A stretch of 64,000 nucleotides of DNA from a virus. Taxonomy: Duplodnaviria; Caudoviricetes. Position 1 is the first letter of the stretch, and every line of letters begins with the position of its first letter. The notes below the pieces were generated by a model that was not told the DNA's origin, searched no databases, and saw nothing but the letters and a program-made list of their open reading frames with translations. A program made the position numbers and the translations under genes. This document shows positions 1-57,767 of the stretch, piece by piece. Location: positions 1-64,000 of IMG/VR virus record IMGVR_UViG_3300037486_000510, one strand, 5' to 3'.

Positions 1-259
1 GTTCTCTATATTCACCATTATATATGTGTGATAAAATTTGTTTTATCTTTGACAAAAGTTTTGGATTTCCTACATCTATACTGCCATTATTATTAATCTT
101 ATAGTTAATAATCTTATTTTCAGTATGTTGACCGCTAGAACCGTTCATAAAATTTATCCAATTATCAATTAAAACTTTTAAACCAATGCCAATATCGGTA
201 ATTGGATCCGATTCTTCAGTAAATTTTTCATTAATAATATATTCTCTAACTAATTTCAT
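1..259 (-). CDS. Leader-family protein, truncated at window start (not in ORF track)
   Basis: Manual translation from ATG at 259 (overlaps upstream TAA as TAATG): MKLVREYIINEKFTEESDPITDIGIGLKVLIDNW..., open to position 1. Confidence 0.8.
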   Translation of the reverse strand, partial: MKLVREYIINEKFTEESDPITDIGIGLKVLIDNWINFMNGSSGQHTENKIINYKINNNGSIDVGNPKLLSKIKQILSHIYNGEYRE

Positions 260-1041
260 TAAATTTTCTTTGCATATTTTACAAATATATCATAATATTC
301 TTCTGGAATTTTGTAATAAGTATCATCATTCATTAAATCTTTAGGAAGCATTATCATGTAAACACCATAATCCCCTTGTCCACCATATTGCGATTGTGCT
401 CTTATTTTCATTATTGGAATCATCTGTAAATCAGATGGATTAAATTTATCAATTTTAACAATATTTTCTGTTCCTAATTTGTCTTCATAATATTTTTTAC
501 CATTTACAGTTACTGGAACTTTTTCAGTAAATCCTATAAATACATAAACATTATTATCTTCGTCTTCTTTTGCTTGTTTCTTTGTTCTTTTTAATTTATA
601 TATGCAAAGTTTTGCTTTTTGTAAATCAGATTTTGCTTGGTTATATCTAATATGATTATGATCAAGAGGCACATCTAAAGATTTTTCTATAATTAATTGT
701 ATTTGTTCAACCGTTAATCCATCTGCTCGAGCCTGTTCAATAAGTTGTGCTATATCTAATTTTGATTTATTCAAATTATGTAATAAAACTTTTTGAGCAA
801 ATGGAAAATATTTAAGTTGAATTTTTATGAACTGAGATATATCTAAATGATATGGTAAAAGATGATAAACACCGTCACTGAGAAAAAAAGTACCGTCATT
901 CTCAAACTCAATAGATTTTTTGGTTAAACCCAACGATGGTAATTCTTTAAGAACTTGCGCCTTTATTCCAATTCCCATATCTTCTATAGGATCGCCTTCT
1001 TCAGTGAATTTTTCACTAATATTTTCTCTAACTATTTTCAT
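259..1041 (-). CDS. Leader-family hypothetical protein (putative internal head protein)
   Basis: 260 aa; begins MKIVRENISEKFTEEGDPIEDMGIG. Confidence 0.7.
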   Translation of the reverse strand: MKIVRENISEKFTEEGDPIEDMGIGIKAQVLKELPSLGLTKKSIEFENDGTFFLSDGVYHLLPYHLDISQFIKIQLKYFPFAQKVLLHNLNKSKLDIAQLIEQARADGLTVEQIQLIIEKSLDVPLDHNHIRYNQAKSDLQKAKLCIYKLKRTKKQAKEDEDNNVYVFIGFTEKVPVTVNGKKYYEDKLGTENIVKIDKFNPSDLQMIPIMKIRAQSQYGGQGDYGVYMIMLPKDLMNDDTYYKIPEEYYDIFVKYAKKI

Positions 1042-1500
1042 TTATTTAGCAGATATAATATTTGGTTTAAAATATTTTTTATATTCTTCTTTTATTTTAA
1101 ATCTAACTTTCCATGATATTTTATAATCTGTAAAAACATCATAAAAACATTCTGAAATTCCTGCGTTATTAATTAAATCAATCGCATAATTTTTTCTATT
1201 TATTTTTTTAGGTTCACCGTTGTTGTATCTTTCTGTTTGACTATAAAGTGTATCGCTATAAAAATGAATTACAAAATAATTTCCTGTTTTAGCCTGTTGA
1301 TTTCTGCCAACAGCGCCCGTTATTTCTATATAATGTATATTTCCGCCCGTAGCACCATAAATAAAATGATTTTTAGAATCTTCGCGTATAATTCCTTTTA
1401 TTGTATTTTCCATATTTCCTAATATTCCAATTCCCATATCATTAATAGGATCTTCGCTATCATGAAACTTTTCATTAATATGTTCTCGCACCAATTTCAT
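1042..1500 (-). CDS. Leader-family hypothetical protein (putative internal head protein)
   Basis: 152 aa; begins MKLVREHINEKFHDSEDPINDMGIG. Confidence 0.7.
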   Translation of the reverse strand: MKLVREHINEKFHDSEDPINDMGIGILGNMENTIKGIIREDSKNHFIYGATGGNIHYIEITGAVGRNQQAKTGNYFVIHFYSDTLYSQTERYNNGEPKKINRKNYAIDLINNAGISECFYDVFTDYKISWKVRFKIKEEYKKYFKPNIISAK

Positions 1501-3278
1501 TAATCATTAATTACTTTTAACATCTGACCAGACCAGTATCTATATTCTGATAAAATATTATTCATTGTACTATGAGTTGCATGTGGAGTTAATTCAAGTA
1601 ATAAAGTATAATTATTATCTTCTATTGCTCTAAATGCTGGCAATCTATCTTCATTATCTAATTCTCCTACATTAAATTTATCTTCAACGTTTATGCGGCC
1701 TCCCATAATTTCTTCTTCAAAAAATAATTGAATAGTTATTTCAGATTTTTTTCCTTTATCTGTAATAATTACCATTGGTTCAAAATCTGGTCTACAATAT
1801 TGAAATATTTCAGTTATATTCCATGATTCTAACAACCCAAATGCAGGAACTAATGCATTATTTTCATTCATTATAGCTTGCATTTGAGCTTTTGTTATAT
1901 CATCTGAAGCATGAAAATCCTTTCCTTCAATGCGATATTTATTGCTTATTGCAAATAAAATAACAGGAGCATTCCACATATCATGAATCCTAATTATATT
2001 AGTCATCTGAGCTGTTGTAAAAGGTTCAAATGTTGTAAGATATACAGCGCATGGTTTGGATCCTCGTTGAACGTCTCTTATTTGAGGTTCGAACGCTTTT
2101 TGAATAGATGCTATAACTCTCATATTATCAACATCTGTAGGATTTCTTTTATTAAACGCGTCAACTACAATGTTTTCTGAACGAGATTCATTTAAAATTG
2201 TCGAATTATCAAATTTATTTATATAATTATTTATAAGATAAACATATGAATTAAATTTTTCTATTATAGATTCTGTTAATAATCCATAAGGCTTTTTGTA
2301 TTTTCTAAACGATGAAATAAAAACTTTAAATAAAGATTCATAAATAGGAGAACTTTCAACCCACTTTAATGTATCTGAATTAGTAATAAATTTTTTATTT
2401 AATTTACCGTGATATCCAAATTGCGGAGGATTTAAATATTTTGCTTCTATGTTTTCATTTACCGTACGAATAGCGCAATATTTATTGAAAATATCACACA
2501 TAATATTTAAATATAGTTGATCCTTTGTTTCAGCTTCCATTATTGGAATATTATAATCAGATAAGAATTCACTTAAGTCTGAAATAACTATATCATAAAA
2601 ATCTCGAGATTCATTTGCTTTTTCATATGCTTCATTAAGTAATTCAAATTCATAAGAAACAATTTGAGTCAATTTATCTTTTGATTTAATTACAATACCT
2701 TCTATGATGTCTTCTCTTGAATATGAAGCATTAAAAACTTTTTCAATCATTTTTGAAAATGTCATAGATTCACCATCATATTGTTTTGTATCATAAGCAA
2801 TAAGAAGTTTCTTTTGTTCTTCGTTTAATTTGCCTTCAAACAAAATAGGTGGTCTTCCCATGCATAAAATAGAAGCCCATTCTCTAACTGAATCATAATC
2901 ATAAGATTCAATTATTTTATCATTAATGCGTTTACTTACATCAGTTAAAATATATTTTGGCAATTTTGAATATGGAATTCTTATTGGACGTTCAACTGGA
3001 GTATAATATAATCCAAAAAATAATCCTTCGGGTATTTTTGCATCTTTAGTAATGATAGGTATTTCTATCATTGCATCCTCGTAGATATCTGTTAAAGTTC
3101 TTTCAATTAAATTAATTGGGGTGTTATCTTTTTTGTAAAAAAGTATTTCGTCTCCCTTTTTTTCAAAAATTAATCTATACGTATCTATTTTTTCAGTAAT
3201 TACAACACGATCTTCTAAGAGATCGTTTACGAATTTTTTCCCTTTTTTTTCTAGGGTTTTTGCTAACGTGTTTAACAT
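1500..3278 (-). CDS. Ligase-fold N-terminal domain fused to cytidylyltransferase-like domain, catalytic motifs degenerate
   Basis: TEKIDT resembles ligase motif I (KxDG), EGIVIK motif IV; C-terminal FEPFTTAQ resembles GRFQPFHxGH of HIGH-family nucleotidyltransferases. Confidence 0.5.
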   Translation of the reverse strand: MLNTLAKTLEKKGKKFVNDLLEDRVVITEKIDTYRLIFEKKGDEILFYKKDNTPINLIERTLTDIYEDAMIEIPIITKDAKIPEGLFFGLYYTPVERPIRIPYSKLPKYILTDVSKRINDKIIESYDYDSVREWASILCMGRPPILFEGKLNEEQKKLLIAYDTKQYDGESMTFSKMIEKVFNASYSREDIIEGIVIKSKDKLTQIVSYEFELLNEAYEKANESRDFYDIVISDLSEFLSDYNIPIMEAETKDQLYLNIMCDIFNKYCAIRTVNENIEAKYLNPPQFGYHGKLNKKFITNSDTLKWVESSPIYESLFKVFISSFRKYKKPYGLLTESIIEKFNSYVYLINNYINKFDNSTILNESRSENIVVDAFNKRNPTDVDNMRVIASIQKAFEPQIRDVQRGSKPCAVYLTTFEPFTTAQMTNIIRIHDMWNAPVILFAISNKYRIEGKDFHASDDITKAQMQAIMNENNALVPAFGLLESWNITEIFQYCRPDFEPMVIITDKGKKSEITIQLFFEEEIMGGRINVEDKFNVGELDNEDRLPAFRAIEDNNYTLLLELTPHATHSTMNNILSEYRYWSGQMLKVIND

Positions 3279-3297
3279 TTTTTATATTTTAGTTTAT

Positions 3298-3741
3298 TTA
3301 TTTAAAAATTGAACCGGTTACATTACAGTATTTTAATATATCCTTTTTTGTAAATTTTTTCAAATTATCGTGACAAAAAAAGTTGTGTACTACTTTTGGA
3401 GCGTATTTTAATGACTTTAATTTATTATTACTACAAGAAAACATTCCATGAACTTCGTAGGGACATCCTCGCAAAGTTGTAAAATTGTTGCGCTGAATAG
3501 AAAAATTACCGTCAATTTTATTAAATTGAATATAATCCGGAAAATTTTCTCCTATTTTATAATTACTTATAATAACAGAACCGTGTACATCTATGGTCAT
3601 ATTTTTTTTTATTACATAATCTTTGATTCTCATTTCATCTAACCATTTTTTTATTATGGTCTTTTTTCCAATTCCCATATCTTCAATAGGATCAGAATAT
3701 TCTGTAAACTTTTCATTAATATGTTCACGAACTATTTTCAA
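3298..3741 (-). CDS. Leader-family protein with short LRR-like repeats
   Basis: TTG start; MKIVREHINEKFTEYSDPIEDMGIG then NNFTTLRGCP and NNKLKSLKYAP repeats. Confidence 0.65.
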   Translation of the reverse strand: MKIVREHINEKFTEYSDPIEDMGIGKKTIIKKWLDEMRIKDYVIKKNMTIDVHGSVIISNYKIGENFPDYIQFNKIDGNFSIQRNNFTTLRGCPYEVHGMFSCSNNKLKSLKYAPKVVHNFFCHDNLKKFTKKDILKYCNVTGSIFK

Positions 3742-3747
3742 TAAATC

Positions 3748-3763
3748 TTTATTTTATATATTC
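3748..3763 (-). promoter_or_regulatory. Late-promoter-like motif GAATATATAAAATAAA
   Basis: Recurrent motif shortly upstream of starts; here 7 nt before the 3741 start. Confidence 0.65.
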
Positions 3764-3810: not shown

Positions 3811-4005
3811 TTAAATTCCGTATCCTTTATTTTTCTTTTTAGTTTCTTTTGGTTTACTAAAGTTTTTTCCAGATAATATACAATATATAAATTTAATTAC
3901 ATTATATGCTAGTCCGCTTAAGAAAAATAATAAGAAAGCATATACTACATAAAGCCATTTTTCTCCAGCACCCGGAAGATTTATTAAATATATAAAATCA
4001 ATCAT
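3811..4005 (-). CDS. Small membrane protein
   Basis: 64 aa with hydrophobic segment WLYVVYAFLLFFLSGLAY and basic tail; tiles with neighbours. Confidence 0.6.
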   Translation of the reverse strand: MIDFIYLINLPGAGEKWLYVVYAFLLFFLSGLAYNVIKFIYCILSGKNFSKPKETKKKNKGYGI

Positions 4006-4553
4006 TATTTAGATTTTACTTTTACAAAATATTTTCTTTTAGGCTCTGTACTTTCTCTAAGTTCTTTATTAATGTTAGAAGTAAACTCTTCCAGAGATCT
4101 ATTAAATGATTCAGAAATTATGGTAGTTATCATATCTGGTGTTAAAATATCATTAAGATTTGAAGCATTAAGTTGTTTATACATTTCATCTATAACATCA
4201 TAGAGTTTGAATTTTAGATTTGATTGTCTTATAGTTTCATTTATAACTGCGGCAGATTTAATTCTTAAGAAATTTTTCTTTTGAATAGCAGTTGAATTTT
4301 CATTAAGACTCATTGAACGTTTTAGTAAGAATTTTTCTCCTTTTTCGCTTACTCCACTTTCTTCAGACCAATAACCGTTGAGTTCACTTAGAAAAGACAT
4401 TTGTGAATTTTCATCAAGATCACGTACAGATGCAAGTCCATAATGTTCAAGCATTGCATTATAAATATTCTTAAAACCATCCAATACTTTGTTTTCCTGA
4501 AGTATCTCAGCTTCATTTATCTTTTCTTTATAAATTTCAGAAAATTTCTTCAT
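4005..4553 (-). CDS. Hypothetical, possible prohead core/scaffold-type protein
   Basis: Helical, acidic, repeated (I/L)xE motifs (KINE, ILQE, SLNE, VINE); late-promoter motif upstream. Confidence 0.4.
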   Translation of the reverse strand: MKKFSEIYKEKINEAEILQENKVLDGFKNIYNAMLEHYGLASVRDLDENSQMSFLSELNGYWSEESGVSEKGEKFLLKRSMSLNENSTAIQKKNFLRIKSAAVINETIRQSNLKFKLYDVIDEMYKQLNASNLNDILTPDMITTIISESFNRSLEEFTSNINKELRESTEPKRKYFVKVKSK

Positions 4554-4561
4554 AGTAATAT

Positions 4562-4577
4562 TTTATTTTATATATTC
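4562..4577 (-). promoter_or_regulatory. Late-promoter-like motif GAATATATAAAATAAA
   Basis: Identical to the 3748 copy; 9 nt before the 4553 start. Confidence 0.65.
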
Positions 4578-4604: not shown

Positions 4605-5240
4605 CTACTCATGTTTATAACCTATATAATGACCATTTTTATTAAGGATTTCTATATTATTTCTTAATTTTTCATTATTTAATTTATTTATTTCTTCGGT
4701 ATCAAGAAATGGAATTTGAATAATAGGGCTTGCAGACGGGGAATAACGGGTATCTTTCAAAGAATCTAAATATTTTTTAATAGCTTCAGGTGAATATTTT
4801 TTATTAAAAGCATTTTCTTTTCTTTTTTGTTTAACTTCTTCAGTTGTTAAAAGTAACCCGCATCTTTCTTTAGCATATGCGTAATCTTTCGAAGATATTT
4901 TATATGCTTCCTTTTTATTTTTTATAAGTGACATCATATAAAAAGCATATAAAATTTTAGTATTATTAGGATAAATATATGTTAATAATTTATGACATAT
5001 ATAATGTTCTCTCGGTATCAATAAAACTATATTTTCTTTTTTATTGTTACCCTCTAAACATTTTGGAATAATATGATGTTTTTCATATTGTATTCCGTTA
5101 TGATTAATTCTATTTTCGTTTAAGGCGTTTTCTATTATTTTATTATATACTTTTTGATGATCCATAAATATTTTTATTGTATATATTAACATTTTTAAGA
5201 AGTTTGGCACAATTTTTTTACTAATAAAGGATATAAACAA
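4605..5240 (-). CDS. HNH homing-endonuclease-like protein (probable true start 5165)
   Basis: YEKHHIIPKCLEGNNKKENIVLLIPREHYICHKLL is a typical phage HNH motif. Confidence 0.8.
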   Translation of the reverse strand: MFISFISKKIVPNFLKMLIYTIKIFMDHQKVYNKIIENALNENRINHNGIQYEKHHIIPKCLEGNNKKENIVLLIPREHYICHKLLTYIYPNNTKILYAFYMMSLIKNKKEAYKISSKDYAYAKERCGLLLTTEEVKQKRKENAFNKKYSPEAIKKYLDSLKDTRYSPSASPIIQIPFLDTEEINKLNNEKLRNNIEILNKNGHYIGYKHE

Positions 5241-5258: not shown

Positions 5259-5576
5259 ATGAAAAAACTATTACTTTTATTAACAGCAGTACTTATTACA
5301 ATTTCTTTGTCAGCTAGACATTTTAATCACAGATTAACAGCAGAAGATAAAGAAGTATTTGAAACTCTTATGTATTTAAGATCTCAAGGAGATATTATAT
5401 TACCCGAAATTCATGTATACGCATCTCAAGATACTACAAAAAAGATGATGAAGAGCGATACTACTAAATGTATTACACAATGCCCCAAAGACACACACAA
5501 CAAAGAAATGAAACAACATAAAGAAATGAATCATGGAGAGAAATCTACGAATTCTTCTGTTCCTATTAAAAAATAA
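5259..5576 (+). CDS. Exported hypothetical protein
   Basis: Signal peptide MKKLLLLLTAVLITISLSA; on the strand opposite the surrounding block. Confidence 0.65.
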   Translation: MKKLLLLLTAVLITISLSARHFNHRLTAEDKEVFETLMYLRSQGDIILPEIHVYASQDTTKKMMKSDTTKCITQCPKDTHNKEMKQHKEMNHGEKSTNSSVPIKK

Positions 5577-5593
5577 CTAAAATAATAACCGCC

Positions 5594-6805
5594 ATGAAAA
5601 AATTATTCTTATTAATCGCGTTCTCAATTATCTCTATGATAATGATCGGCCAAAACGATACGGCAATGACCGATTATGAGAAGTATTATTACGCAAAGGA
5701 AGCAGCATTGCTTTCGCCTACAAGTATTCCTGATACTATTCGTGATACAGTTTATGTAAAATCAGCACCTGTAGAAAACGACGATTTGTATTACATTCCT
5801 ACTAAAGAAGATGTTAAAAATAAAAAGGAAATGATTCGTCTTGAAAAGAAACAAATACAAATGGAACAAAGCGCGGCATATTACGATGCGTATGAGGAAG
5901 TATATGAAGATTTTTATTATAGCACATTAATAAATCGATTCAGCTATGGTTTTGGATTTTCATATTATACTCCATATTGGTCAATAGGATATGGTTATTA
6001 CGACCCATGGTACACACCATATTGGGGATTTAACTGGGGATGGGGATATCCATACTACAACTATCCTTATTATGGTTATGGATGGGGTTATCCTTCATAT
6101 CCATATTATCACTATCCTTACTATCATGATGATTATTATCATCATGATAACTATTACGGAAGTGGCGGCTATCCTACAAATAATCATATGACTCAGCGAA
6201 GACAAACACCTTCAACGTCTATAAGAACAATACAAAAAACTTCTATACACAATAATGTGAAAGCGGCTATACCTCAACAATCAACTCATGGAAGAAGAAT
6301 TGAAAGCGGAACAGTTAGTAGAATGACACAACAAAGTACTGTGCAAAAACAAGCACCTACAACAAAGCCTATGTATAATCAAACTCAACGAAGAGAAGGC
6401 TACACACCTACATATACAAGACCAAATATGAGTAAAACTCAACCGTATAATACTACAAATCATTTTCAGAGTGAAATTCGTAATACTGAAAACAAATCTA
6501 ATACATACTCTGCTCCTATAGAACGTAAAAGTACATCTACACAAACAAGAAGTACATATTCAGTACCAGCTAGAACACATGCACCTTCATATTCAACACC
6601 CTCAAAAACTAATTCAATGCCTTCGAGAAGTAGTGGATCAAGTTATTCTTCACCAAGCAGAAGTTCAGGTGGATCTAGCTATTCTTCGCCAAGTAAAAGT
6701 TCGGGTGGATCAAGTTATTCAGGAGGGAGTTCTTCTAATGGACATTCTTCAAGTTCAAATAGTTCTTCAAATAGTTCTTCGGGCGGATCACATAGTAGAA
6801 GATAA
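5594..6805 (+). CDS. Exported Tyr/Gly/Trp-rich protein with Ser-rich low-complexity tail, Bacteroidota-like
   Basis: Signal peptide ending IG|Q, DDLYY motif, YxxWGWGYPY repeats, SSGGSSYSSPS-type tail. Confidence 0.6.
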   Translation: MKKLFLLIAFSIISMIMIGQNDTAMTDYEKYYYAKEAALLSPTSIPDTIRDTVYVKSAPVENDDLYYIPTKEDVKNKKEMIRLEKKQIQMEQSAAYYDAYEEVYEDFYYSTLINRFSYGFGFSYYTPYWSIGYGYYDPWYTPYWGFNWGWGYPYYNYPYYGYGWGYPSYPYYHYPYYHDDYYHHDNYYGSGGYPTNNHMTQRRQTPSTSIRTIQKTSIHNNVKAAIPQQSTHGRRIESGTVSRMTQQSTVQKQAPTTKPMYNQTQRREGYTPTYTRPNMSKTQPYNTTNHFQSEIRNTENKSNTYSAPIERKSTSTQTRSTYSVPARTHAPSYSTPSKTNSMPSRSSGSSYSSPSRSSGGSSYSSPSKSSGGSSYSGGSSSNGHSSSSNSSSNSSSGGSHSRR

Positions 6806-6806
6806 C

Positions 6807-6834
6807 AAAAAGGAGAGTTTAAACTCTCCTTTTT
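6807..6834. terminator. Bidirectional terminator
   Basis: Perfect 28-bp palindrome AAAAAGGAGAGTTT/AAACTCTCCTTTTT between convergent genes. Confidence 0.8.
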
Positions 6835-7244
6835 TAATATGAATAATAAAATCCTACATCTACTTTTTTACAAATATTTGTAGTGTAATCCCATATCCAA
6901 ACTTTAATATTATTAAGTGCTGCAATAGTCATCAATCTTCTGATTTCTTTAACATCTTTTGTACTTTCTACAATTAGTAAAACTCCTGGCTTCTTGTCTA
7001 ATATTGTAGCATAATACAATGATTGTCCTATACTTTCAGCCCATTTATCTGCAAATTCAACTTCAATAGCAAAGGTATCATTAATAATATCTACTCTTGA
7101 TAAATCTGGTAAAACATATTCGGTTTCTGCTCCTATACTATCTGCAAAAAGATCTCTATAATAAGATTCTCTTTGTTTAGTTAATTGAGCAATACATGAT
7201 AAACTTATTAAAGATAATAAAATACAAATTATTATTTTTTTCAT
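6834..7244 (-). CDS. PD-(D/E)xK-like nuclease fold with N-terminal signal peptide
   Basis: Signal ending CIA|Q; SRVDII...AIEVEFADKWAESIGQSLYYA...PGVLLI pattern. Confidence 0.5.
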   Translation of the reverse strand: MKKIIICILLSLISLSCIAQLTKQRESYYRDLFADSIGAETEYVLPDLSRVDIINDTFAIEVEFADKWAESIGQSLYYATILDKKPGVLLIVESTKDVKEIRRLMTIAALNNIKVWIWDYTTNICKKVDVGFYYSY

Positions 7245-8842
7245 TTTATTTTTGTGAGTGGCTTCATTAAATATTCTTCATTTAGAATTTCATCTAAATG
7301 ATATTTTAAAAATCCTTCTTTAAGATAGGGATGTATTTTTCTTAATGTATCAAAATCCTTATTATCTAAAGCCTTATCCACTTCTTTTTTAAGATCATAT
7401 TGATCCATTTTAGAATAATTTTTAGAAGATGTCTCTATTTCTGTTGTTTTTCCTAATAATTTTTCTTCATCTTCATTTTCTATCGCATCTTCTGCACCTT
7501 TAGCCATCATTCCAAAAAAATCTTTTTCATCTTCTCCTTTTAAAGATTTCATATGATCTCTAAATTGCAGTGTCAAAATACGTTTAAATGTAGGAGTTTC
7601 CATTAATTCATCTTCATATTTCAATATTTCTGGAAATTTTTTAGATAATCTTATTAACCACGGCATAACGTATGACGCTACTTCTTGTTTATTTTTTGCG
7701 ATTTCTTTAAGATATTCTTCAAGTTCTTTTAATGTAGGCGCAATTTTAAATTCTTTAAATGCATCATCAATAAAATCTTCATTTAATAAAGGCTTTATTA
7801 AATATTCTTCATTTAGAATTTCATCTAAATGACATTTTAAAAATCCTTCTTTAAGATATGGTTGTATTTTTCTTAATGTGTCAAAATCTCTTTTATCTAA
7901 TGCTGCATCAACTTCTTTTTTAAGATCATATTGGCTCATTTTAGTATAATCTGCAGGGCCTACTTTATTTTCTTTAGTTTTTCCTTTTCTTATTAATTTT
8001 TCAATTTCGTCTTCTTCCTCTTCTGGAAATGGGAGAGATATTTTAACTATATTTTCAAGAATTTCGTCTCTGTGATCATCTAAAAATATTCTTTCGATTG
8101 TATTATTTTTTTGAAAAATATCTATAAATTTATCTATATGAGCATTGATAAACTCTCTAAAAAATTCACTCAGTTCTTCTCGTGGAGCTTGTTGTTCAAA
8201 CATACGATCCATTTCAGTTTTAAAATAACGAAAATCTTGAGAATTTATCCATTTATCTGCATTATTTATAGCTATTTGCGCGATTTTTTTAACATCATAT
8301 TTTTTCTCTTCTTCATTTAATCTTTTCATAATATATTCATTATTTTTTGATTCAAAAATATAATCTACATCAATATTAAAATATGTTTTTAAAACATTTG
8401 ATATTTCACGTCTAATTCTTACTATAAAAGGTTTATCTCCATAATAATTTTCATCTTCGCATGCTCTGTAAAATGCTTCTTGAGGACTATATAAATTTTG
8501 TACATATCTAAAAAATTTATGTAATACTGATGATGGACCGTAGTTTTGTTTATCTCCAAAATATTTTACACCTATTGTATCTGCGTTTCCGCGTGTTTCT
8601 TCAAAAAATATTTTAGCAGCTTGTATTGGAGTCATTCCAATTCCCATATCTTTTATTGGATCAGAGTTTTCAATAAATTTTTCATGTAATTGTGATTTAT
8701 GAGGTATAATATTAGGACGAGGATTTTGTACAGGTCTCGGAGTAGGCCTTGGAATAGGTCTTGGAACGGGTCTTGGAACTGCTATTGGTCTTTTTTTACC
8801 ACAGCCGCAACCTTCAGCGATATATTCTTTAACTATTTTCAT
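7241..8842 (-). CDS. Leader-family protein with PRP-repeat linker and duplicated IDEAL/UVR-like domain
   Basis: Starts MKIVKEYIAE; internal LHEKFIENSDPIKDMGIG; two copies of QYDLKKEVDxALDxxDFDTLRKI...LDEILNEE. Confidence 0.65.
   Translation of the reverse strand: MKIVKEYIAEGCGCGKKRPIAVPRPVPRPIPRPTPRPVQNPRPNIIPHKSQLHEKFIENSDPIKDMGIGMTPIQAAKIFFEETRGNADTIGVKYFGDKQNYGPSSVLHKFFRYVQNLYSPQEAFYRACEDENYYGDKPFIVRIRREISNVLKTYFNIDVDYIFESKNNEYIMKRLNEEEKKYDVKKIAQIAINNADKWINSQDFRYFKTEMDRMFEQQAPREELSEFFREFINAHIDKFIDIFQKNNTIERIFLDDHRDEILENIVKISLPFPEEEEDEIEKLIRKGKTKENKVGPADYTKMSQYDLKKEVDAALDKRDFDTLRKIQPYLKEGFLKCHLDEILNEEYLIKPLLNEDFIDDAFKEFKIAPTLKELEEYLKEIAKNKQEVASYVMPWLIRLSKKFPEILKYEDELMETPTFKRILTLQFRDHMKSLKGEDEKDFFGMMAKGAEDAIENEDEEKLLGKTTEIETSSKNYSKMDQYDLKKEVDKALDNKDFDTLRKIHPYLKEGFLKYHLDEILNEEYLMKPLTKIK
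7260..7419. repeat. 160-bp intragenic direct repeat, copy B
   Basis: Aligns with 7791..7950 at offset 531 with scattered substitutions. Confidence 0.85.
7791..7950. repeat. 160-bp intragenic direct repeat, copy A
   Basis: Aligns with 7260..7419. Confidence 0.85.
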
Positions 8843-8890
8843 ATATTTTATATATTAAAATAGGAGATAGCGCAGTTGTAAATCTAATAT

Positions 8891-16380: not shown

Positions 16381-16396
16381 GAATATATAAAATAAA
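16381..16396 (+). promoter_or_regulatory. Late-promoter-like motif GAATATATAAAATAAA
   Basis: Exact copy 10 nt before the 16407 start. Confidence 0.65.
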
Positions 16397-16406
16397 TCTT
16401 TAATTA

Positions 16407-16883
16407 ATGAGAGCTCAATTGATTAATGAAAAATTTACTGATGAATCGGATCCTATATCTGATATGGGTATAGGCTTTGCAGGAATTAATGATTTTAAAA
16501 ATCGTCTTAAAGAAGTTGCAGAAATTCCTAATAAAGATCTTAAAAATATGAATTTTAGAGATAATTCTCAAAAAATTCTTGAATTACGAGAGATAACAGC
16601 ACAATTAGTTATGTTTTATTTTAGAGAAAAATATGGATTAAAATTTAAGCCAGAATCGGGAGCTAAATATGAGGGCTCTATGATAGGAGAAGCACGATTA
16701 GGAAATTTTATTTTTAAATTATGGTGGTCAACTACAATGCAAAGTATAAAATTAATGATATTATCTACAGGCCCACATGGACAATATAAAGAATCATCAA
16801 ATTGTCAATCTATGAAATCTCTTGAAGGAAATCTTATAAAGATCTGTAAAGAACTTAATATAAAATTGTTAAATCAAGAATAA
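16407..16883 (+). CDS. Leader-family hypothetical protein
   Basis: Begins MRAQLINEKFTDESDPISDMGIG. Confidence 0.7.
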   Translation: MRAQLINEKFTDESDPISDMGIGFAGINDFKNRLKEVAEIPNKDLKNMNFRDNSQKILELREITAQLVMFYFREKYGLKFKPESGAKYEGSMIGEARLGNFIFKLWWSTTMQSIKLMILSTGPHGQYKESSNCQSMKSLEGNLIKICKELNIKLLNQE

Positions 16884-18521: not shown

Positions 18522-18896
18522 TTATTTTATATATTCTTTTTGAAAATCTTCTAAAAAAGATAGTATCATTTCATATCCATCTATAATTTCGTTGATTTTA
18601 TTAATATGACGTTTATCGTCATAATGACTATCAATAGTAAGTTTGCGTTCTCGAATAGATCTATCAATAGATTCTATTGCAGATTTAGTATCAAATTTAT
18701 GATTTATTATAATGTCTAATGCGTTACTAAATCCTACTTCTTCATATGTTGTTAAATTAGAACTAGATAATACATCATTTCTAAATTCTATTAATTTTTC
18801 TCTTAAAAATTTTTCAAGCGCATTTTTTCCAATACCCAAGTCTTTTATAGGATCCGATATTTCTACAAATTTTTCATTTATAAATTTTGCTCTCAT
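18522..18896 (-). CDS. Leader-family hypothetical protein
   Basis: Begins MRAKFINEKFVEISDPIKDLGIG. Confidence 0.7.
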   Translation of the reverse strand: MRAKFINEKFVEISDPIKDLGIGKNALEKFLREKLIEFRNDVLSSSNLTTYEEVGFSNALDIIINHKFDTKSAIESIDRSIRERKLTIDSHYDDKRHINKINEIIDGYEMILSFLEDFQKEYIK

Positions 18897-25862: not shown

Positions 25863-25876
25863 TTTATTTATATATT
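25863..25876 (-). promoter_or_regulatory. Late-promoter-like motif AATATATAAATAAA
   Basis: Contains the T4 late consensus TATAAATA; 10 nt before the 25852 start. Confidence 0.6.
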
Positions 25877-27579: not shown

Positions 27580-27593
27580 TTTATTTATATATT
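27580..27593 (-). promoter_or_regulatory. Late-promoter-like motif AATATATAAATAAA
   Basis: Contains TATAAATA; 8 nt before the 27571 start. Confidence 0.6.
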
Positions 27594-36379: not shown

Positions 36380-36394
36380 TTTATTTTATATATT
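36380..36394 (-). promoter_or_regulatory. Late-promoter-like motif AATATATAAAATAAA
   Basis: 11 nt before the 36368 start. Confidence 0.6.
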
Positions 36395-50004: not shown

Positions 50005-50018
50005 TTTATTTATATATT
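50005..50018 (-). promoter_or_regulatory. Late-promoter-like motif AATATATAAATAAA
   Basis: Contains TATAAATA; 10 nt before the 49994 start. Confidence 0.6.
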
Positions 50019-50406: not shown

Positions 50407-50544
50407 GATAAATAAGTTTTATTTATTTTATATATCTTTTAATTTTGGATTACTATCTTAATATAAATATGAAAATGGTCTTTTTTTAATAAAATATATA
50501 AGATATAATAATTATATATTTTTAACCCTTTAAACTAAAATAAT

Positions 50545-51855: not shown

Positions 51856-51871
51856 GAATATATAAAATAAA
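51856..51871 (+). promoter_or_regulatory. Late-promoter-like motif GAATATATAAAATAAA
   Basis: Exact copy abutting the 51873 start. Confidence 0.65.
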
Positions 51872-51872
51872 A

Positions 51873-52622
51873 ATGAAAAAGAATATTCAATTCTTTTATG
51901 TTTATTTAATTACTAATGTTATTTTAAATAAACAGTATATTGGAAGTAGATTGTGTTACAAAAATAAAATAGAAGACGATATTTATTGGAGTTCAAGTAA
52001 ATATGTTAAAATGGATATAAAAACATATGGAATAAAAACTTTTACTAAAAAAATTATAAAAGATGATTATAAAAATGCTGTTGATATGTTAGAGGGAGAA
52101 ACTGAAAATATTTTAAAATATAATACACTGGAACCTAATGGATATAATAGAAGTTTACCCGGGGAAAATATAAAATTTTACACTGGAGGTAATCACCTTA
52201 GTAAAAAAACTAAAGAAAAAATAAGTATAAAATTAAAAGGGAAAAAGCGAAGTACGGGAATGTTTGGTAAAAAACATACAGAGGAATCAAAAAGAAAAAT
52301 GTCCGAGTCATTAAAAAAACAAATAAAAACTAAAGAACATAAAATAAAATTAAGCAAATCTTTAACTGGAATTAAAAGATCAGAGGAAACTCGAAAAAAA
52401 ATGAGTAGTTCTAAACAGGGAATATCTTTATCAGAAGAACATAAAATTCATCTCAGAGAATCAATAAAAAAATCGAAAAGACGCAATTATTGTAAACGGG
52501 GTTCATATATAAGACATAAAAAAGATTTAATATGTCCGCATTGCGGAAAACTAATTGCTCCGAATATGTATATGAGATGGCACGGTGATAATTGCAAAAA
52601 TAATATTTTATTGAATATATAA
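51873..52622 (+). CDS. GIY-YIG homing endonuclease with NUMOD3-like repeats
   Basis: FYVYLITN...QYIGSR, NGYN, MFGKKHTEESKRKMSES repeats, C-terminal CPHCG. Confidence 0.85.
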   Translation: MKKNIQFFYVYLITNVILNKQYIGSRLCYKNKIEDDIYWSSSKYVKMDIKTYGIKTFTKKIIKDDYKNAVDMLEGETENILKYNTLEPNGYNRSLPGENIKFYTGGNHLSKKTKEKISIKLKGKKRSTGMFGKKHTEESKRKMSESLKKQIKTKEHKIKLSKSLTGIKRSEETRKKMSSSKQGISLSEEHKIHLRESIKKSKRRNYCKRGSYIRHKKDLICPHCGKLIAPNMYMRWHGDNCKNNILLNI

Positions 52623-52628
52623 AATAAA
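52613..52628 (+). promoter_or_regulatory. Late-promoter-like motif GAATATATAAAATAAA
   Basis: Exact copy 10 nt before the 52639 start. Confidence 0.65.
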
Positions 52629-52638
52629 TGCTTAATTA

Positions 52639-52950
52639 ATGAGAGCCAAACTTATAGATGAGAAGTTTACAAAAGATTCCGATCCAATAAAAGATCTGAA
52701 AATAGGATATAAAAATTATTATGATTATGCTGAAAAAGTGTTAAAAAAATATAATTTAAATCCGGAAGATTTTACACTATTTCTTTATGATGTTTATCGC
52801 AATTTTCCCGTAGATGGAGTACTTGATCAAATGTTTGAAATTCTTGAGCATACTCCATTGGAATATCAAGTAGACTACATAAGTAGTAATCTATATCATT
52901 TTATGGTAGAAGAAGGCGTCGATGAAAATGAAGCTATAAAAGAAGTATAA
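52639..52950 (+). CDS. Leader-family hypothetical protein
   Basis: Begins MRAKLIDEKFTKDSDPIKDLKIG. Confidence 0.65.
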   Translation: MRAKLIDEKFTKDSDPIKDLKIGYKNYYDYAEKVLKKYNLNPEDFTLFLYDVYRNFPVDGVLDQMFEILEHTPLEYQVDYISSNLYHFMVEEGVDENEAIKEV

Positions 52951-52968: not shown

Positions 52969-54396
52969 ATGAAAAAGGCAAAGAGTTATTCAATTTTGGA
53001 AGTGTGTAATTGGGCAGATATAGGTATCATATGGGAATTTTATTCAACAAAAGAATCTGCGTTTATCGTATCTGATCTTTCAAAATGCACATCTAAAAAT
53101 ATTATACTTACAAATGAAACTATTTATCATCCTTCATATTCAAATGCTATTTTAATAAGAGAATATGAAGCAACAAAATCTCGTTATCAATTTCACATAG
53201 CGCCCCAAAATTATCATTCAATATTGCCTTTAATTGATAGTGTAACTACATGGATAGCAGAAAGCGCAGAAACATCTCATGATACTCAGTTAAAGATATC
53301 CTTATCTTTTAATCATCGTCATTTAGATACACTCTCAAGCATATCTAACATGAATCCCAGTAGATTGATATTAAAATTTGATGAAAATTTCGTATATTCA
53401 AGATTTCCTGAACAACAAAAATCTCCATATGCGTTATCAATTAAAAAATTAGCTACTCCAGTATCTAATTATATAAATGAAACTGAAATAGAAAAAAATA
53501 TTAATTATATTCTTACAACACCTCAATCTGAATACTATGGAATTAATTTTTCTAATTATACAAGAGGAATATTGGAGTGTAATTATATAGGTGGTCGAGA
53601 TTATGCATCAAAAGCAAAAGAAATTAAAGAAATTTTGGAATATTTTATAATAAAATCATATCAAAGTTTAAATGAAGAAGATCATGATGAATTTGAGAAA
53701 TATGAAATAAAAAAGATGGGAGCAAGATTTAGTAAAATTCAAATGGCATATTATGATCCTGAAATATTTATAAATGAATATAAAGATTTAAAAATATATG
53801 TAGATTTAAAAACTTCTGACCAAATTATTAAAACTTTTTGGAATACATTAAGAAAACCTTTATTTGAAATGATATTAAATGGTAATTTGCAAAAAGGCAT
53901 AATTAACTATGATGCAGATTTAGGCATATTTCAATTAAAGAAAACTAAAATTCAGGGAACTTATTTAAAAAACGTTGATTTTGTTAATTGCGAAGTATCT
54001 GGAATATTTGAAAGTTGTACGTTTATAAGTACTGAAATAACAAATTCACGAATTTATAATTCAAAATTTATAAAAGGAAATAAGATAATTAATTCTTATC
54101 TTGAAGGAGCCAGTGTTAATAAAGAAAATGAAATTACAAAATGTTATGTGATAAATGAAGAAGAAATAATCAATTGTCCTATAAAAGAAAGCGTTATTAA
54201 ATTTGCTACTCCAGGAAAAAATATTACATTAGATGAACACAGCACAATAGTGGTTACACAAATGCCGCTATCTAAAAAAACTGATGCTATTCAAGTTGAA
54301 GAACTAAGAGATTACGCATGGATTAAAGAAATGAATAAATCAGAAGACAAGGGATATCAAAATGCTTATGATAGAAATAAATATTTAAAAAAATGA
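52969..54396 (+). CDS. Amidoligase-like protein (degenerate) with C-terminal pentapeptide-like beta-helix
   Basis: IGIIWEFY, LKISLSF, YYGINF, LECNYIGG.DY follow the amidoligase pattern with substitutions. Confidence 0.45.
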   Translation: MKKAKSYSILEVCNWADIGIIWEFYSTKESAFIVSDLSKCTSKNIILTNETIYHPSYSNAILIREYEATKSRYQFHIAPQNYHSILPLIDSVTTWIAESAETSHDTQLKISLSFNHRHLDTLSSISNMNPSRLILKFDENFVYSRFPEQQKSPYALSIKKLATPVSNYINETEIEKNINYILTTPQSEYYGINFSNYTRGILECNYIGGRDYASKAKEIKEILEYFIIKSYQSLNEEDHDEFEKYEIKKMGARFSKIQMAYYDPEIFINEYKDLKIYVDLKTSDQIIKTFWNTLRKPLFEMILNGNLQKGIINYDADLGIFQLKKTKIQGTYLKNVDFVNCEVSGIFESCTFISTEITNSRIYNSKFIKGNKIINSYLEGASVNKENEITKCYVINEEEIINCPIKESVIKFATPGKNITLDEHSTIVVTQMPLSKKTDAIQVEELRDYAWIKEMNKSEDKGYQNAYDRNKYLKK

Positions 54397-55127
54397 CTAA
54401 ACAAGAATTAATAGATTATGTCAATAGAGAAATAACTGCATCTGCAGCGATTCCATTTTCTGTTCCTCCTATAGAAATCGAAAGAATAATTGATTTGGAA
54501 CAAAGATGGATGTATAGAGAGTATAGAGACGCTGTTCAAGATGCATGGTATGTATTAGATAAACATTATTATCTTACTGATGAGTGGAAACATACAAGAA
54601 CCTTTCAATTACCTCCTTGCGTTTTAGCAATTAGATATGTGTATGAAATGACGTCGGGCCAAAGAGTTTTTGGTATACATGATCCAGATTTAACGTTTGA
54701 TAGATTAATGGCTGCGGATCTTTATTTAACTCCATTATCTTCAGATCAAATAACTTATAGAACAATTCAATGGAGTTTTTGGGATTTAGCAAAACAATTC
54801 AACTTAAAAGATATTCAGCATCATTTTAATATTAATACGCATAGATTAATTATTACTGGTAGAGATCCTGCTGAATCTCTTTGGGTAACAACATTAAATG
54901 AAATACCAAAGGAAGATTTATATGAAGATCCAGTTTTTATAAAATGGATAATCGCAAAAGCTAAAATACAATTAGCAAGAATTATAGGAACATTTAATTA
55001 TACACTTATCGGTGGCGTACAAATTAATTATGCAGATATACGAGCTGAAGGAAAAGAAGAATTAACAGAACTTAAAGAAAAAATTAGAACCGATAGTCCT
55101 GCCGACTGGTTTATGATGATCTCGTAA
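54393..55127 (+). CDS. Neck/head-completion protein (T4 gp13-like)
   Basis: C-terminal LIGGVQINYADIRAEGKEELTEL matches the gp13-family pattern. Confidence 0.65.
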   Translation: MTKQELIDYVNREITASAAIPFSVPPIEIERIIDLEQRWMYREYRDAVQDAWYVLDKHYYLTDEWKHTRTFQLPPCVLAIRYVYEMTSGQRVFGIHDPDLTFDRLMAADLYLTPLSSDQITYRTIQWSFWDLAKQFNLKDIQHHFNINTHRLIITGRDPAESLWVTTLNEIPKEDLYEDPVFIKWIIAKAKIQLARIIGTFNYTLIGGVQINYADIRAEGKEELTELKEKIRTDSPADWFMMIS

Positions 55128-55175
55128 AATTATTTTTAAAAAATAGCTACTTCTGTATATAACAGATTAAAAAAT

Positions 55176-55200
55176 AAGGGAGAATGTCTCCCTTTCGTTT
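55176..55200 (+). terminator. Rho-independent terminator
   Basis: AAGGGAGA-ATG-TCTCCCTT then TCGTTT. Confidence 0.65.
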
Positions 55201-55207
55201 TATAGAA

Positions 55208-55223
55208 GATATATAAAATAAAA
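55208..55223 (+). promoter_or_regulatory. Late-promoter-like motif GATATATAAAATAAAA
   Basis: Just before the 55229 start. Confidence 0.6.
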
Positions 55224-55228
55224 AGTAA

Positions 55229-55591
55229 ATGATTAAAGAAATCTACACTAGAAATCCCGAAGATCCCAATTTTCAATATGGTATTTTGGAGCATTCAGAT
55301 ACAGTAGAGTCTATTATTACTAAAGCAAAAATGATATTAGGCACTAGACAAGGTCAAACAATAGGTGATTTAAATTTTGGTGTAGGCTTAGAAGATTTAA
55401 TCTTTGAAACGAGAGTAAACAAAAATCAATTAGAAGAAAAAATTATATCGCAATTTAATCAATATATATCTGAAACTAAAGATTATAAAGTTGTACCTCA
55501 AGTTTCTTTTGGAAAAGCGGAGGGGTACGATTATGCTATAATAGACATTTATATAAATGATCAACGTACTATAGGAATTTTAGTAAAATAA
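55229..55591 (+). CDS. Baseplate wedge gp25-like protein
   Basis: ILGTRQGQ..GD.NFGVGLEDLIFE pattern, 120 aa. Confidence 0.75.
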   Translation: MIKEIYTRNPEDPNFQYGILEHSDTVESIITKAKMILGTRQGQTIGDLNFGVGLEDLIFETRVNKNQLEEKIISQFNQYISETKDYKVVPQVSFGKAEGYDYAIIDIYINDQRTIGILVK

Positions 55592-55601
55592 TAAAAAATA
55601 A

Positions 55602-57497
55602 ATGAAAATATTTGATACAACTCGCATTAGATTCTCTGAATTATATTATGATGCAATAGAATTTATAAAAACCAGTTATAGTGAATTGGGCCAATATTTT
55701 ACAATGGCATCTCCTATGGGGCAATTACTTCAGGTGATGTTGCAATATGGAAGAATGATTCTATATTATGTAGAAGATTCTATAACTGAATTAAATATAA
55801 AAACTGCATCTAGACCACAAAGTATAAAAGGTTTAGCTACTTTAACTGGTCATAGTCCATCTAGAGCTATTGCAGCAAGAGGAACAATATCTATATCTCA
55901 TAATGGCACAAAATTACCAACATATTCAAATATTTTAACTATTCCAAATTATACTAAGATTTCAAGTAATGAAAATGGCTTAACTTATACAGTTGTATTA
56001 CCGGGTGAAGAAGCTCATTTAGATTTGACGAGTCCAGTCAATTCTTTAGATTTAAATATAATTCAGGGAACAGTTGAATTTCAACAAGCAACTGGTACCG
56101 GTGATCCACTTCAATCGTTTAATTTTCAAAACAAAAAAGGTTCAACAATAGATAATTATTTTGTAAGTGTATATGTTGATGGAAAAAAATGGCAAACAGT
56201 AGATTCTATTTTAGATATGCCATTTAATCAAGAAGCAGTAATGATAAAAACCGGCCAAACAGGCGGAATAGATATTTTCTTTGGAAACGGTTATAATGGA
56301 GCTGTTCCTCGACTAGGTTCAATAATATTATTAGAATATCTTATTACTGACGGAGCTGCAGGAAATTTAAATACAATGGCAAGTAATACGGCAAATTCTT
56401 GGAATTTTACCACAAAAGGAATAGCTCTTAATGGAGAGGAAGTAGATATTAACAAATACGTTAATGTATACGTTAAAAATTCAATAATGTTTGGAGCAAT
56501 GGAAGAACCGTTATATTTAACTAGATTATTGACTCCAAGAGTATCAAGGAGTTTTGTTCTAGCAAATGAAAATAATTATATTTATTTTCTTAAAAAATTA
56601 AACATGTTTACTCTTATAGATGCTATACCAGGATTTGAAACATTTGAAGATCAATATATGCTAGATAAATACAATCAAGCAAAAACAACTTATGAAAATA
56701 TAAATGAAGAATATAGAAATTTAATTTCTACGTATGGTGTAAATTCTGGTTTAGCAACTTCTAAAAAGGCTGAATTAGATCGTGCTCAACAACAATTATA
56801 TTATTATCAAGAAAGACTTGCTGAGCAAAAATTAGATGATAATACAGTATATTTATATTTAGTTCCTGATATTTCTAAAAGATTACCTTCATCTGAAAAT
56901 TATTATACGTGTAGTACTGCTGTATTTGCTTTATCTTTAGGAGAAAAAACAGCAATTTTGGATTTAATTGAACAAAGTGGACAAAGAATTTTAACAGTTG
57001 ATAATGTAATATTGGATTTAAAACATCCAAGATTTACTTTAAATATGTCATTAATATTATGGGAAGGAACTACTTATGATACAGTTAGACAAAGTATTAT
57101 AAATAAAACATCTTCATATTTTACACAAACTACTAGAAGAGATAGAATTCCTGTATCTGATTTAATTAAAATAATTGAAAGTATTGATGGTGTAGATTCT
57201 GTAAATGTTTGGTTTGACGCAGACGCTGAAAATTTAAAAATTTATAGAACTCATTATGGAATAGATGATTACGGAGATATAATTCTTGAAAGATATATAA
57301 AAGATGCATTCGGTAAAGAAGTTCCTATTAGAGACATTTATCCTTTAATTCGTGGAGGATTTGAAAATGAATTAGGAGTTTATTATGAAGATAGTTTAAC
57401 AAAAAATAAATTATCAACTTTAAATATTCAAGTAAGAGGGTACACTTCTAAAAACTTAAATTCAGAAACAAACATAACAATTATGAATAATTTATAA
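55602..57497 (+). CDS. Baseplate wedge gp6-like protein
   Basis: TASRPQSI..LA.L.GH.P.R..AARG, YLITDGAAGN, size and position after gp25-like. Confidence 0.7.
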   Translation: MKIFDTTRIRFSELYYDAIEFIKTSYSELGQYFTMASPMGQLLQVMLQYGRMILYYVEDSITELNIKTASRPQSIKGLATLTGHSPSRAIAARGTISISHNGTKLPTYSNILTIPNYTKISSNENGLTYTVVLPGEEAHLDLTSPVNSLDLNIIQGTVEFQQATGTGDPLQSFNFQNKKGSTIDNYFVSVYVDGKKWQTVDSILDMPFNQEAVMIKTGQTGGIDIFFGNGYNGAVPRLGSIILLEYLITDGAAGNLNTMASNTANSWNFTTKGIALNGEEVDINKYVNVYVKNSIMFGAMEEPLYLTRLLTPRVSRSFVLANENNYIYFLKKLNMFTLIDAIPGFETFEDQYMLDKYNQAKTTYENINEEYRNLISTYGVNSGLATSKKAELDRAQQQLYYYQERLAEQKLDDNTVYLYLVPDISKRLPSSENYYTCSTAVFALSLGEKTAILDLIEQSGQRILTVDNVILDLKHPRFTLNMSLILWEGTTYDTVRQSIINKTSSYFTQTTRRDRIPVSDLIKIIESIDGVDSVNVWFDADAENLKIYRTHYGIDDYGDIILERYIKDAFGKEVPIRDIYPLIRGGFENELGVYYEDSLTKNKLSTLNIQVRGYTSKNLNSETNITIMNNL

Positions 57498-57501
57498 TAA
57501 T

Positions 57502-57765
57502 ATGGCAAGAAGAAGCTTATATACTGTAAGAGAATCATATTTAAATCAAGCAAAACATATAAATGATGTATTTTTGAATTTAGGATATGATTATAGAGGA
57601 AACATACTTAAGAAGGGAACTTCTCCAGAATTGTGGGCAAATCCTTTGCAAGATTCTAATTATTTAACTTTAGAAGGTATGATAACATTTATTTTAGAAC
57701 AAGCCAAATATGTTAAAAAGTGGTTTTCTATAGCACATGACAAAAATACTACTCTTATAAATTAA
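57502..57765 (+). CDS. Small baseplate-associated hypothetical protein
   Basis: 87 aa ORF tightly packed between wedge genes. Confidence 0.55.
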   Translation: MARRSLYTVRESYLNQAKHINDVFLNLGYDYRGNILKKGTSPELWANPLQDSNYLTLEGMITFILEQAKYVKKWFSIAHDKNTTLIN

Positions 57766-57767
57766 CC

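Follow-up and report, generated by a model that had tools for sequence, protein, structure and literature searches.

A bipartite leader on divergent proteins of an uncultured T4-type megaphage: a candidate capsid-targeted, protease-cut cargo system

Introduction

Why would a phage place one short leader in front of many otherwise unrelated proteins? The question is raised by a 64,000-nucleotide (nt) stretch of viral DNA (Duplodnaviria; Caudoviricetes), hereafter the window, which comprises positions 1-64000 of the 77,286-bp IMG/VR record IMGVR_UViG_3300037486_000510 (CheckV completeness 19%; guanine-plus-cytosine (GC) content of the window 26-35%). Its source appears to be an uncultured megaphage of ~400 kb with T4-type head genes, the head genes being predicted from a relative. 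Eight open reading frames (ORFs) of the window begin with a bipartite leader, a peptide of 8-11 residues followed by a conserved 15-mer that starts KF and ends GIG (KF..GIG below), and then diverge. The explanation considered foremost here is a cargo system that is targeted to the capsid and cut by a prohead protease, for which we see roughly equal chances of being right or wrong; the capsid-targeting part is supported circumstantially.

The leader and the proteins that carry it

A six-frame scan and the ORF listing place the leader on exactly 8 ORFs of the window, the same eight that a first-pass annotation of this DNA had named. A leader hidden Markov model (HMM), as that annotation had suggested, was run against all stop-to-stop frames of the 77-kb record and recovers these eight plus a ninth outside the window, an ankyrin protein at record position 75892-76590(-). 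Each of the 9 matches has E<=3e-11, and the next has E=1.6. The leader is confirmed as real and lies far beyond chance. The leader ORFs of the window, with lengths in amino acids (aa) and with LRR denoting leucine-rich repeat, are:

2..259 (-): leader ORF 1, running off the window start; pre-KF peptide MKLVREYIINE, 11 aa, nt 227-259; KF..GIG at nt 182-226
259..1041 (-): leader ORF 2, 260 aa; MKIVRENISE (nt 1012-1041), then KFTEEGDPIEDMGIG (nt 967-1011); orphan body
1042..1500 (-): leader ORF 3, 152 aa; MKLVREHINE, then KFHDSEDPINDMGIG; orphan body
3298..3741 (-): leader ORF 4, 147 aa, TTG start; MKIVREHINE, then KFTEYSDPIEDMGIG, then a short LRR-like solenoid body
7241..8842 (-): leader ORF 5, 533 aa; MKIVKEYIAE, a spacer, KFIENSDPIKDMGIG (nt 8636-8680), then a helical body with four LNE sites
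16407..16883 (+): leader ORF 6, 158 aa; MRAQLINE, then KFTDESDPISDMGIG; 8-aa class
18522..18896 (-): leader ORF 7, 124 aa; MRAKFINE, then KFVEISDPIKDLGIG; directly after the upstream gene, without a promoter motif of its own
52639..52950 (+): leader ORF 8, 103 aa; MRAKLIDE, then KFTKDSDPIKDLKIG; immediately 5' of the baseplate gene block 52969-61583

The N-terminal peptide is of 10 residues in ORFs 2, 3 and 4 and also in the 533-aa member, where a spacer separates it from KF, of 11 residues in ORF 1, and of 8 residues in ORFs 6, 7 and 8. In 9/9 copies of the record, KF is preceded by [ILV]-x-E. KF..GIG is the best conserved part of the leader; no Pfam or PHROG model and no published description of it was found, the libraries being incomplete.

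Codons at the conserved residues match genome-wide synonymous usage (Ser as both TCN and AGY, Ile as ATT/ATA ~50:50, Gly in three codons), and third codon positions have the highest entropy. Selection therefore acts on the peptide, as the first-pass annotation had deduced from differing synonymous codons. That annotation had also proposed structure prediction of the cargo, and would have taken a leader embedded in a longer folded domain as counting against its reading. AlphaFold2 (AF2) modelling of the 147-aa member (3298-3741; 27-sequence alignment) gives a mean predicted local distance difference test (pLDDT) score of 89, with residues 1-20 at ~47-51 and almost without regular structure, and an LRR-like folded body above 94 from residue 25 on. 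The leader is thus predicted to be disordered and outside the fold, and is not a predicted part of a larger one.

Relatives and internal junctions

A degenerate DNA pattern for DPIxDMGIG matched 103 IMG/VR loci. One of the matching contigs, G001, is a complete genome of 405,016 bp that has terminal repeats, and the window is collinear with it (~153 to 232 kb of G001, core proteins 60-82% identical). Leader genes at matching positions in G001 are divergent, replaced, fused or split; the counterpart of leader ORF 2 (259-1041) is two separate genes. The leader HMM finds 88 motif copies in ~63 genes of G001, with I/L/V at P3 in 87/88 and Glu at P1 in 87/88. Internal copies number 26 of the 88, are spaced ~110-130 residues apart (up to six in one 757-aa ORF), and have [ILV]-x-E immediately ahead of KF but no MKxVREH.

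When 1.84 billion cluster representatives (clusters at 50% identity) were searched exhaustively with the profile, 1,661 protein clusters reached E<=1e-3, and 116 of them E<=1e-30; the maximum was 10 copies per protein. Detailed junction statistics were taken from the best 150 proteins (independent) of the 1,661, which hold 513 copies. P1 is Glu in 511 of these, P3 is I/L/V/M in 98%, P2 is Asn in 69%, and P1'P2' is KF in 89%. The median junction spacing is 124 residues and most copies are internal junctions; the N-terminal peptide has 10 residues in 81 of the proteins, 8 in 25 and 11 in 14. Multi-unit chains have uniform junctions and no internal start codons. Since the copies in G001 and in the profile search show repeated junctions, the unit is [ILV]-x-E, then KFxEESDP(I/V)xD(M/L)GIG, then a body with a median of ~115 residues, whether single or concatenated. 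Members in the window are single units; chains in G001 hold 2-6 units per ORF, and elsewhere as many as 10. The earlier description of the leader as N-terminal therefore holds for the window but has to be widened for the relatives, where it also serves as an internal junction between units.

Among cultured phages no match was obtained by tblastn with the 30-aa leader or by megablast of the window. With the 147-aa member as tblastn query, Lak and other huge phages were matched in the body only, starting at residue 25. A scan of prokaryotic assemblies (596 Gb) gave 6 matches; just 2 of them are true leaders, and each of the two is on a short contig of a metagenome-assembled genome bin. As judged from these searches, the motif does not extend beyond this viral clade. 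An LRR-like body is also seen in other phages behind degenerate leaders (P0025 and P0028: MKNLKDYIIQE/GFLRKNLGLG, or only FFKNLGVG); these may be older, diverged forms of bipartite leader outside the clade.

Protease, capsid protein and T4-like N-terminus

A Peptidase_S77 protease (T4 gp21-type) is encoded in two relatives, G001 (57-61 bits) and G003. In G001 a major capsid protein (MCP) of the gp23 family (Gp23, 134 bits) follows a 781-aa protein with an N-terminal Peptidase_S77 (306658-309003 (-), locus L130), in which the protease domain occupies residues 19-137 and is followed by a ~640-residue helical, [ILV]NE-rich extension. The extension is probably the scaffold and the whole a gp21-gp22 fusion. 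With leaders masked, the protease-scaffold fusion is the most [ILV]NE-enriched of 485 G001 proteins (10 vs 0.97 expected, p=9e-8). Among T4 head proteins, [IL]xE is likewise densest in the scaffold gp22 (5.95 per 100 residues vs ~1.6).

HMMER aligns residue 89 of the G001 MCP with residue 91 of T4 gp23. Between residues 7 and 110 the G001 MCP has a single [ILV]-x-E, at HFHA-LNE43/AAMGG; the T4 gp23 record reads FGSF-LTE65/AEIGG, and the mature PDB chain has 456 residues, which is 521-65. The LNE/A of the MCP is conserved in >95% of 120 orthologues, a figure that adds little because the whole MCP N-terminus is conserved too.

T4 IPII and IPIII begin MKTYQEFIAE (read from AF158101). MKLVREHINE is equal to it in length and shares five positions (M1, K2, E6, I8, E10), and the peptide always ends in [ILV]-x-E; the match in length and pattern to the T4 capsid-targeting sequence (CTS), proposed in the first-pass annotation, is thereby borne out. 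The pattern ^M[KR]xxxEx[ILV]xE starts 27/485 G001 proteins vs 0.05 expected. Most of the 27 (24) run into KF..GIG, 1 reaches a variant KF..GIG beyond an insertion, and 2 have the 10-mer alone. A CTS-only protein of G001 (274974-276281 (+), L128; 435 aa) begins MKHVYESLKE, has the promoter motif described below upstream of its gene, and carries a very long C-terminal poly-Asp/Glu tract, by which it appears to resemble the T4 prohead core protein gp67.

Bodies of the units

The 94 units of the record and G001 form 48 BLAST clusters, the larger families being LRR-like (16), unnamed (11) and ankyrin (10), and single ORFs combine units of different families. The bodies are thus divergent, as had been noted, and the proposal that they are swappable is upheld by collinear leader loci together with unit clustering, by which body families are seen to be exchanged between relatives. 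The bodies tend to be basic, with a median isoelectric point of 8.8 vs 7.7 for other small proteins.

No Pfam or PHROG match was found to any body of the window members, and the ESM Atlas gave no usable match for the bodies of 259-1041 and 1042-1500. Foldseek against the PDB with the body of the 147-aa member gave weak LRR matches only, all at E >0.1. Pfam searches of 19 long leader proteins found only ankyrin repeats and one DUF6267 (fused in P0075), with no enzymatic and no peptidase domain. The bodies appear to be non-enzymatic binders or orphans. For a two-unit protein of G001, AF2 scores the internal junction at 55-62, between 78-83 before it and 91 after it, a dip that is weak evidence because the first unit is poorly modelled.

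In leader ORF 5, KF..GIG is at aa 55-69, and the preceding 44-aa basic Cys/Pro/Arg-rich spacer ends LHE. A basic peptide of ~40 residues (GCxCG-KK, then Pro/Arg-rich; window 8681-8842 (-)) is here N-terminal, between two cleavage-type sites; a similar one in the G001 homologue (159313-160251 (-)) is C-terminal, directly after LNE. This basic peptide may be a released DNA-binding internal peptide.

Promoter motif and gene position

A promoter-like motif, TATATAAA(A)TA, lies 5-25 nt 5' of start codons, often after a GC-rich hairpin and a T-run. It contains TATAAATA, which we take to be the T4 late-promoter core. Copies in the window are found at 3750-3760, 4564-4574, 8844-8854, 16384-16394, 18523-18533, 25865-25874, 27582-27591, 36382-36392, 50007-50016, 50424-50434, 51859-51869, 52616-52626 and 55210-55220. 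The copy that heads the leader operon is:

3750..3760 (-): TATATAAAATA late-type promoter motif after a terminator-like hairpin, heading the operon of leader ORFs 4, 3, 2 and 1 and a 592-aa gene

This operon runs from 3741 down to 2, with leader ORF 4 first. Four leader ORFs (starts 3741, 8842, 16407 and 52639) lie directly behind TATATAAAATA, in agreement with the first-pass annotation, the copies at 8844-8854, 16384-16394 and 52616-52626 belonging to ORFs 5, 6 and 8. The motif at 4564-4574 belongs to a 182-aa gene (4005-4553).

In G001 the motif occurs in 90 copies, 55 of them within 60 nt upstream of a start codon, and it is common to protease-scaffold, fibre, baseplate and leader genes. 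The strict form is found at 12/30 leader transcription units vs 38/193 overall, and several more have one-mismatch variants. Two leader genes of G001 are directly upstream of the protease gene, the place of core genes 67 and 68 in T4. A denV-like pyrimidine-dimer glycosylase gene (G001 309233-309697 (+), L130) lies between these two leader genes and the protease; in T4, denV adjoins ipII and ipIII. The position of the denV-like gene may reflect residual synteny or may be accidental.

Across the 103 loci, which hold 229 leader ORFs, the genes found most often next to a leader gene encode homing endonucleases or baseplate/tail proteins. The prevalence of homing endonucleases suggests that leader regions are hot spots of gene flux. 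No modifying-enzyme family recurs beside the leader genes of these loci; an enzyme encoded elsewhere in the genome is possible.

Proposed mechanism and alternatives

Under the capsid-cargo explanation, leader genes would be transcribed together with structural genes from the TATAAATA-like promoter, presumably late. The 8-11-residue N-terminal peptide (consensus MKLVREHINE or MRAKFIYE) would act as a CTS through which the protein enters the core of the prohead scaffold; in relatives an entire chain of 2-10 units would enter by one such peptide. At every [I/L/V]-x-E, most often I/L/V-N-E, a gp21-type (Peptidase_S77) protease would cut behind the Glu, by which the tag would be taken off and the units separated. 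Each released unit would start with the flexible, acidic 15-mer, kept at each new N-terminus, which could dock to the core or capsid or serve as a signal at ejection or in the host. The units would probably be delivered with the DNA. A more specific form of this explanation, which we consider unlikely, takes KF..GIG to be a second address that is cryptic until the cut by the prohead protease makes it N-terminal, on a library of ~90 exchangeable binder modules. A single short cassette would then hold both this signal and a removable loading signal, and would serve to link the modules into chains and to deliver them. Such a post-cleavage signal could act in docking to the capsid, set the sequence of exit through the tail or make that exit possible, attach units to a shared host target, or govern when they are destroyed; in many bacteria Lys at a new N-terminus works as a secondary N-degron.

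Several points weigh against capsid targeting and cleavage. The leader proteins are known from sequence alone, with no cultured phage carrying the leader, and ~63 genes with 88 units, ~10% of coding capacity, would be far more cargo than that of T4. The 77-kb record has no protease or MCP gene, the head module lying outside it, and both are deduced from the collinear relative. The strict promoter motif is present at only 12 of the 30 leader transcription units, and late timing is presumed. A single-sequence search of G001 and G000 with T4 gp55, the late sigma factor, was empty, a result that is uninformative at this distance. Because [ILV]-x-E is itself a piece of the conserved motif, it may agree with gp21 specificity by chance. 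Nothing resembling KF..GIG follows the Glu at the MCP and scaffold sites; protease recognition therefore does not explain the 15-mer, which is, as first claimed, without a T4 counterpart. The two-unit AF2 model, with its poorly modelled first unit, has a mean pLDDT of 66.

A doubtful, though possible, alternative is that the leader is an adaptor peptide outside the virion, KF..GIG docking binder modules onto a common host or phage partner or forming the recognition site of a modifying enzyme, with [ILV]-x-E simply a piece of that motif and the likeness to a CTS coincidental. This agrees with the retention of the well-conserved KF..GIG at internal copies that have no 10-mer, with bodies that are typical protein-binding repeats, and with a family that is very large for capsid cargo. 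It leaves unexplained, however, the tight peptide lengths of 10, 8 or 11 residues, the likeness of these peptides to the T4 pattern, the existence of CTS-only proteins and the over-representation of [ILV]NE in the scaffold fusion, and the promoter motif common to leader and structural genes and the lack of a recurrent enzyme family at the 103 loci also speak against it. Cytoplasmic polyproteins, with junctions cut by some other protease, or by S77 outside the prohead, into intracellular effectors that are never packaged or ejected, are quite improbable. T4 gp21 acts inside the assembled prohead (PMC5694885), the chains have no embedded peptidase domain, and the N-terminal CTS-like peptide would be left without a role, even though multi-unit chains with uniform junctions and no internal starts, and the dip in predicted order at the junction, are what such polyproteins would show.

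Conservation at the level of DNA, as a promoter-plus-leader recombination cassette or an RNA element whose peptide has no function, is for its part effectively ruled out by the codon analysis, invariant residues following genome-wide usage and third positions having the highest entropy. The promoter and leader DNA before 16407 is nearly the same as that before 52639, and leader genes often adjoin homing endonucleases, so that cassette exchange does occur; yet internal copies without promoters are equally conserved, and the peptide is kept in 1,661 clusters.

Comparison with known systems

T-even internal proteins are already known as diverse proteins that share only a CTS (PMC3012670), and the novelty first claimed for the present system was to that extent overstated. 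Within the prohead, T4 gp21 removes propeptides of 10-20 residues (PMC5694885). Likenesses to T4 IPI, IPII, IPIII and Alt include the 10-residue N-terminal peptide ending in (I/L)-x-E; unrelated bodies that change fast and have nothing but the tag in common (PMC3012670), here mostly basic; a gp21-family protease in relatives G001 and G003, with a gp23 MCP in G001; and the placing of leader genes near head or baseplate genes. In contrast to T4, the leader adds the conserved 15-mer KFxEESDPIxDMGIG after the predicted cut, its junction is also internal in chains of 2-10 units, and ~63 genes in one 405-kb genome (G001) compare with 3-4 in T4. The bodies also have no sequence similarity to IPI-III or Alt by Pfam and PHROG, a weak criterion because the T4 bodies are also unrelated to each other.

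The giant phages phiKZ, 201phi2-1 and SPN3US have propeptide-bearing ejection or inner-head proteins (PMC5694885). Many of their head-internal proteins are cut by a T4-related prohead protease at x-x-E, and paralogues have conserved N-termini (PMC5694885), a pattern that the leader proteins would share. Their propeptides, however, are mostly >100 residues long and their motif is S/A/G-x-E rather than I/L/V-x-E, and neither KF..GIG nor chains of repeated units have been described for them. Polyvalent proteins of phages and conjugative elements were described by Iyer, Burroughs, Anand, de Souza and Aravind in 2017 (PMC5512222) as polypeptides of 2-15 domains that are predicted to be packaged, proteolytically released and delivered with the DNA. 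The combination of unrelated domains in one polypeptide is shared by the leader chains of the relatives only. Polyvalent proteins differ in their enzymatic conflict domains and a usually embedded peptidase (a zincin-like metallopeptidase, MPTase), whereas leader units are small binders or orphans, joined throughout by one short motif and without embedded peptidase. Leader tags recognised by an enzyme, as in ribosomally synthesized and post-translationally modified peptides (RiPPs), differ in that no dedicated modifying enzyme recurs beside leader genes at the 103 loci. What appears specific here is the KF..GIG motif and its abundance.

Other genes in the leader cluster

Further genes within the leader cluster of the window are:

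1500-3278 (-): 592-aa gene in the leader operon, 79% identical to its G001 orthologue, with four [ILV]NE sites
4005..4553 (-): conserved 182-aa gene, helical product; N-terminus MKKFSEIYKEKINE then A, with three further-spaced [ILV]NE and without KF..GIG
4605-5240 (-): HNH-type homing endonuclease (phrog_655, E=1e-35)
5259-5576 (+), 5594-6805 (+) and 6834-7244 (-): ORFs with signal-peptide-like N-termini and no G001 counterpart

The 592-aa gene product (1500-3278) has no Pfam or PDB match. Its identity with the DUF6267 domain that is fused to leader units in P0075 was considered and rejected, the two being unrelated. The G001 orthologue of the 182-aa protein (4005-4553) ranks 2 of 485 for [ILV]NE enrichment (5 observed vs 0.23 expected), and the protein is a candidate prohead core protein. 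One of the three signal-peptide-like ORFs encodes a 403-aa low-complexity protein rich in Tyr/Gly/Pro and Ser; the three look like an inserted moron-like block within the leader cluster.

Implications

Should the capsid reading fail, the motif would still be an undescribed and very abundant junction peptide. If the reading is true, the specificity of a distant gp21-type protease would be defined as [ILV]-N-E, and an undescribed, separable 15-residue candidate signal for packaging, ejection or host docking would be at hand. The T4 CTS is already in use for loading foreign proteins into capsids, and a second portable signal would for that reason be of practical interest. Cargo would also be predictable from sequence alone, the 25-residue junction serving as the mark of each unit; at 50% identity, at least 1,661 protein clusters have it. 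The T4 internal-protein paradigm, now of three or four proteins, would come to include modular polyprotein libraries, and a whole clade of uncultured megaphages would give about a tenth of its coding capacity to cargo loaded into the capsid.

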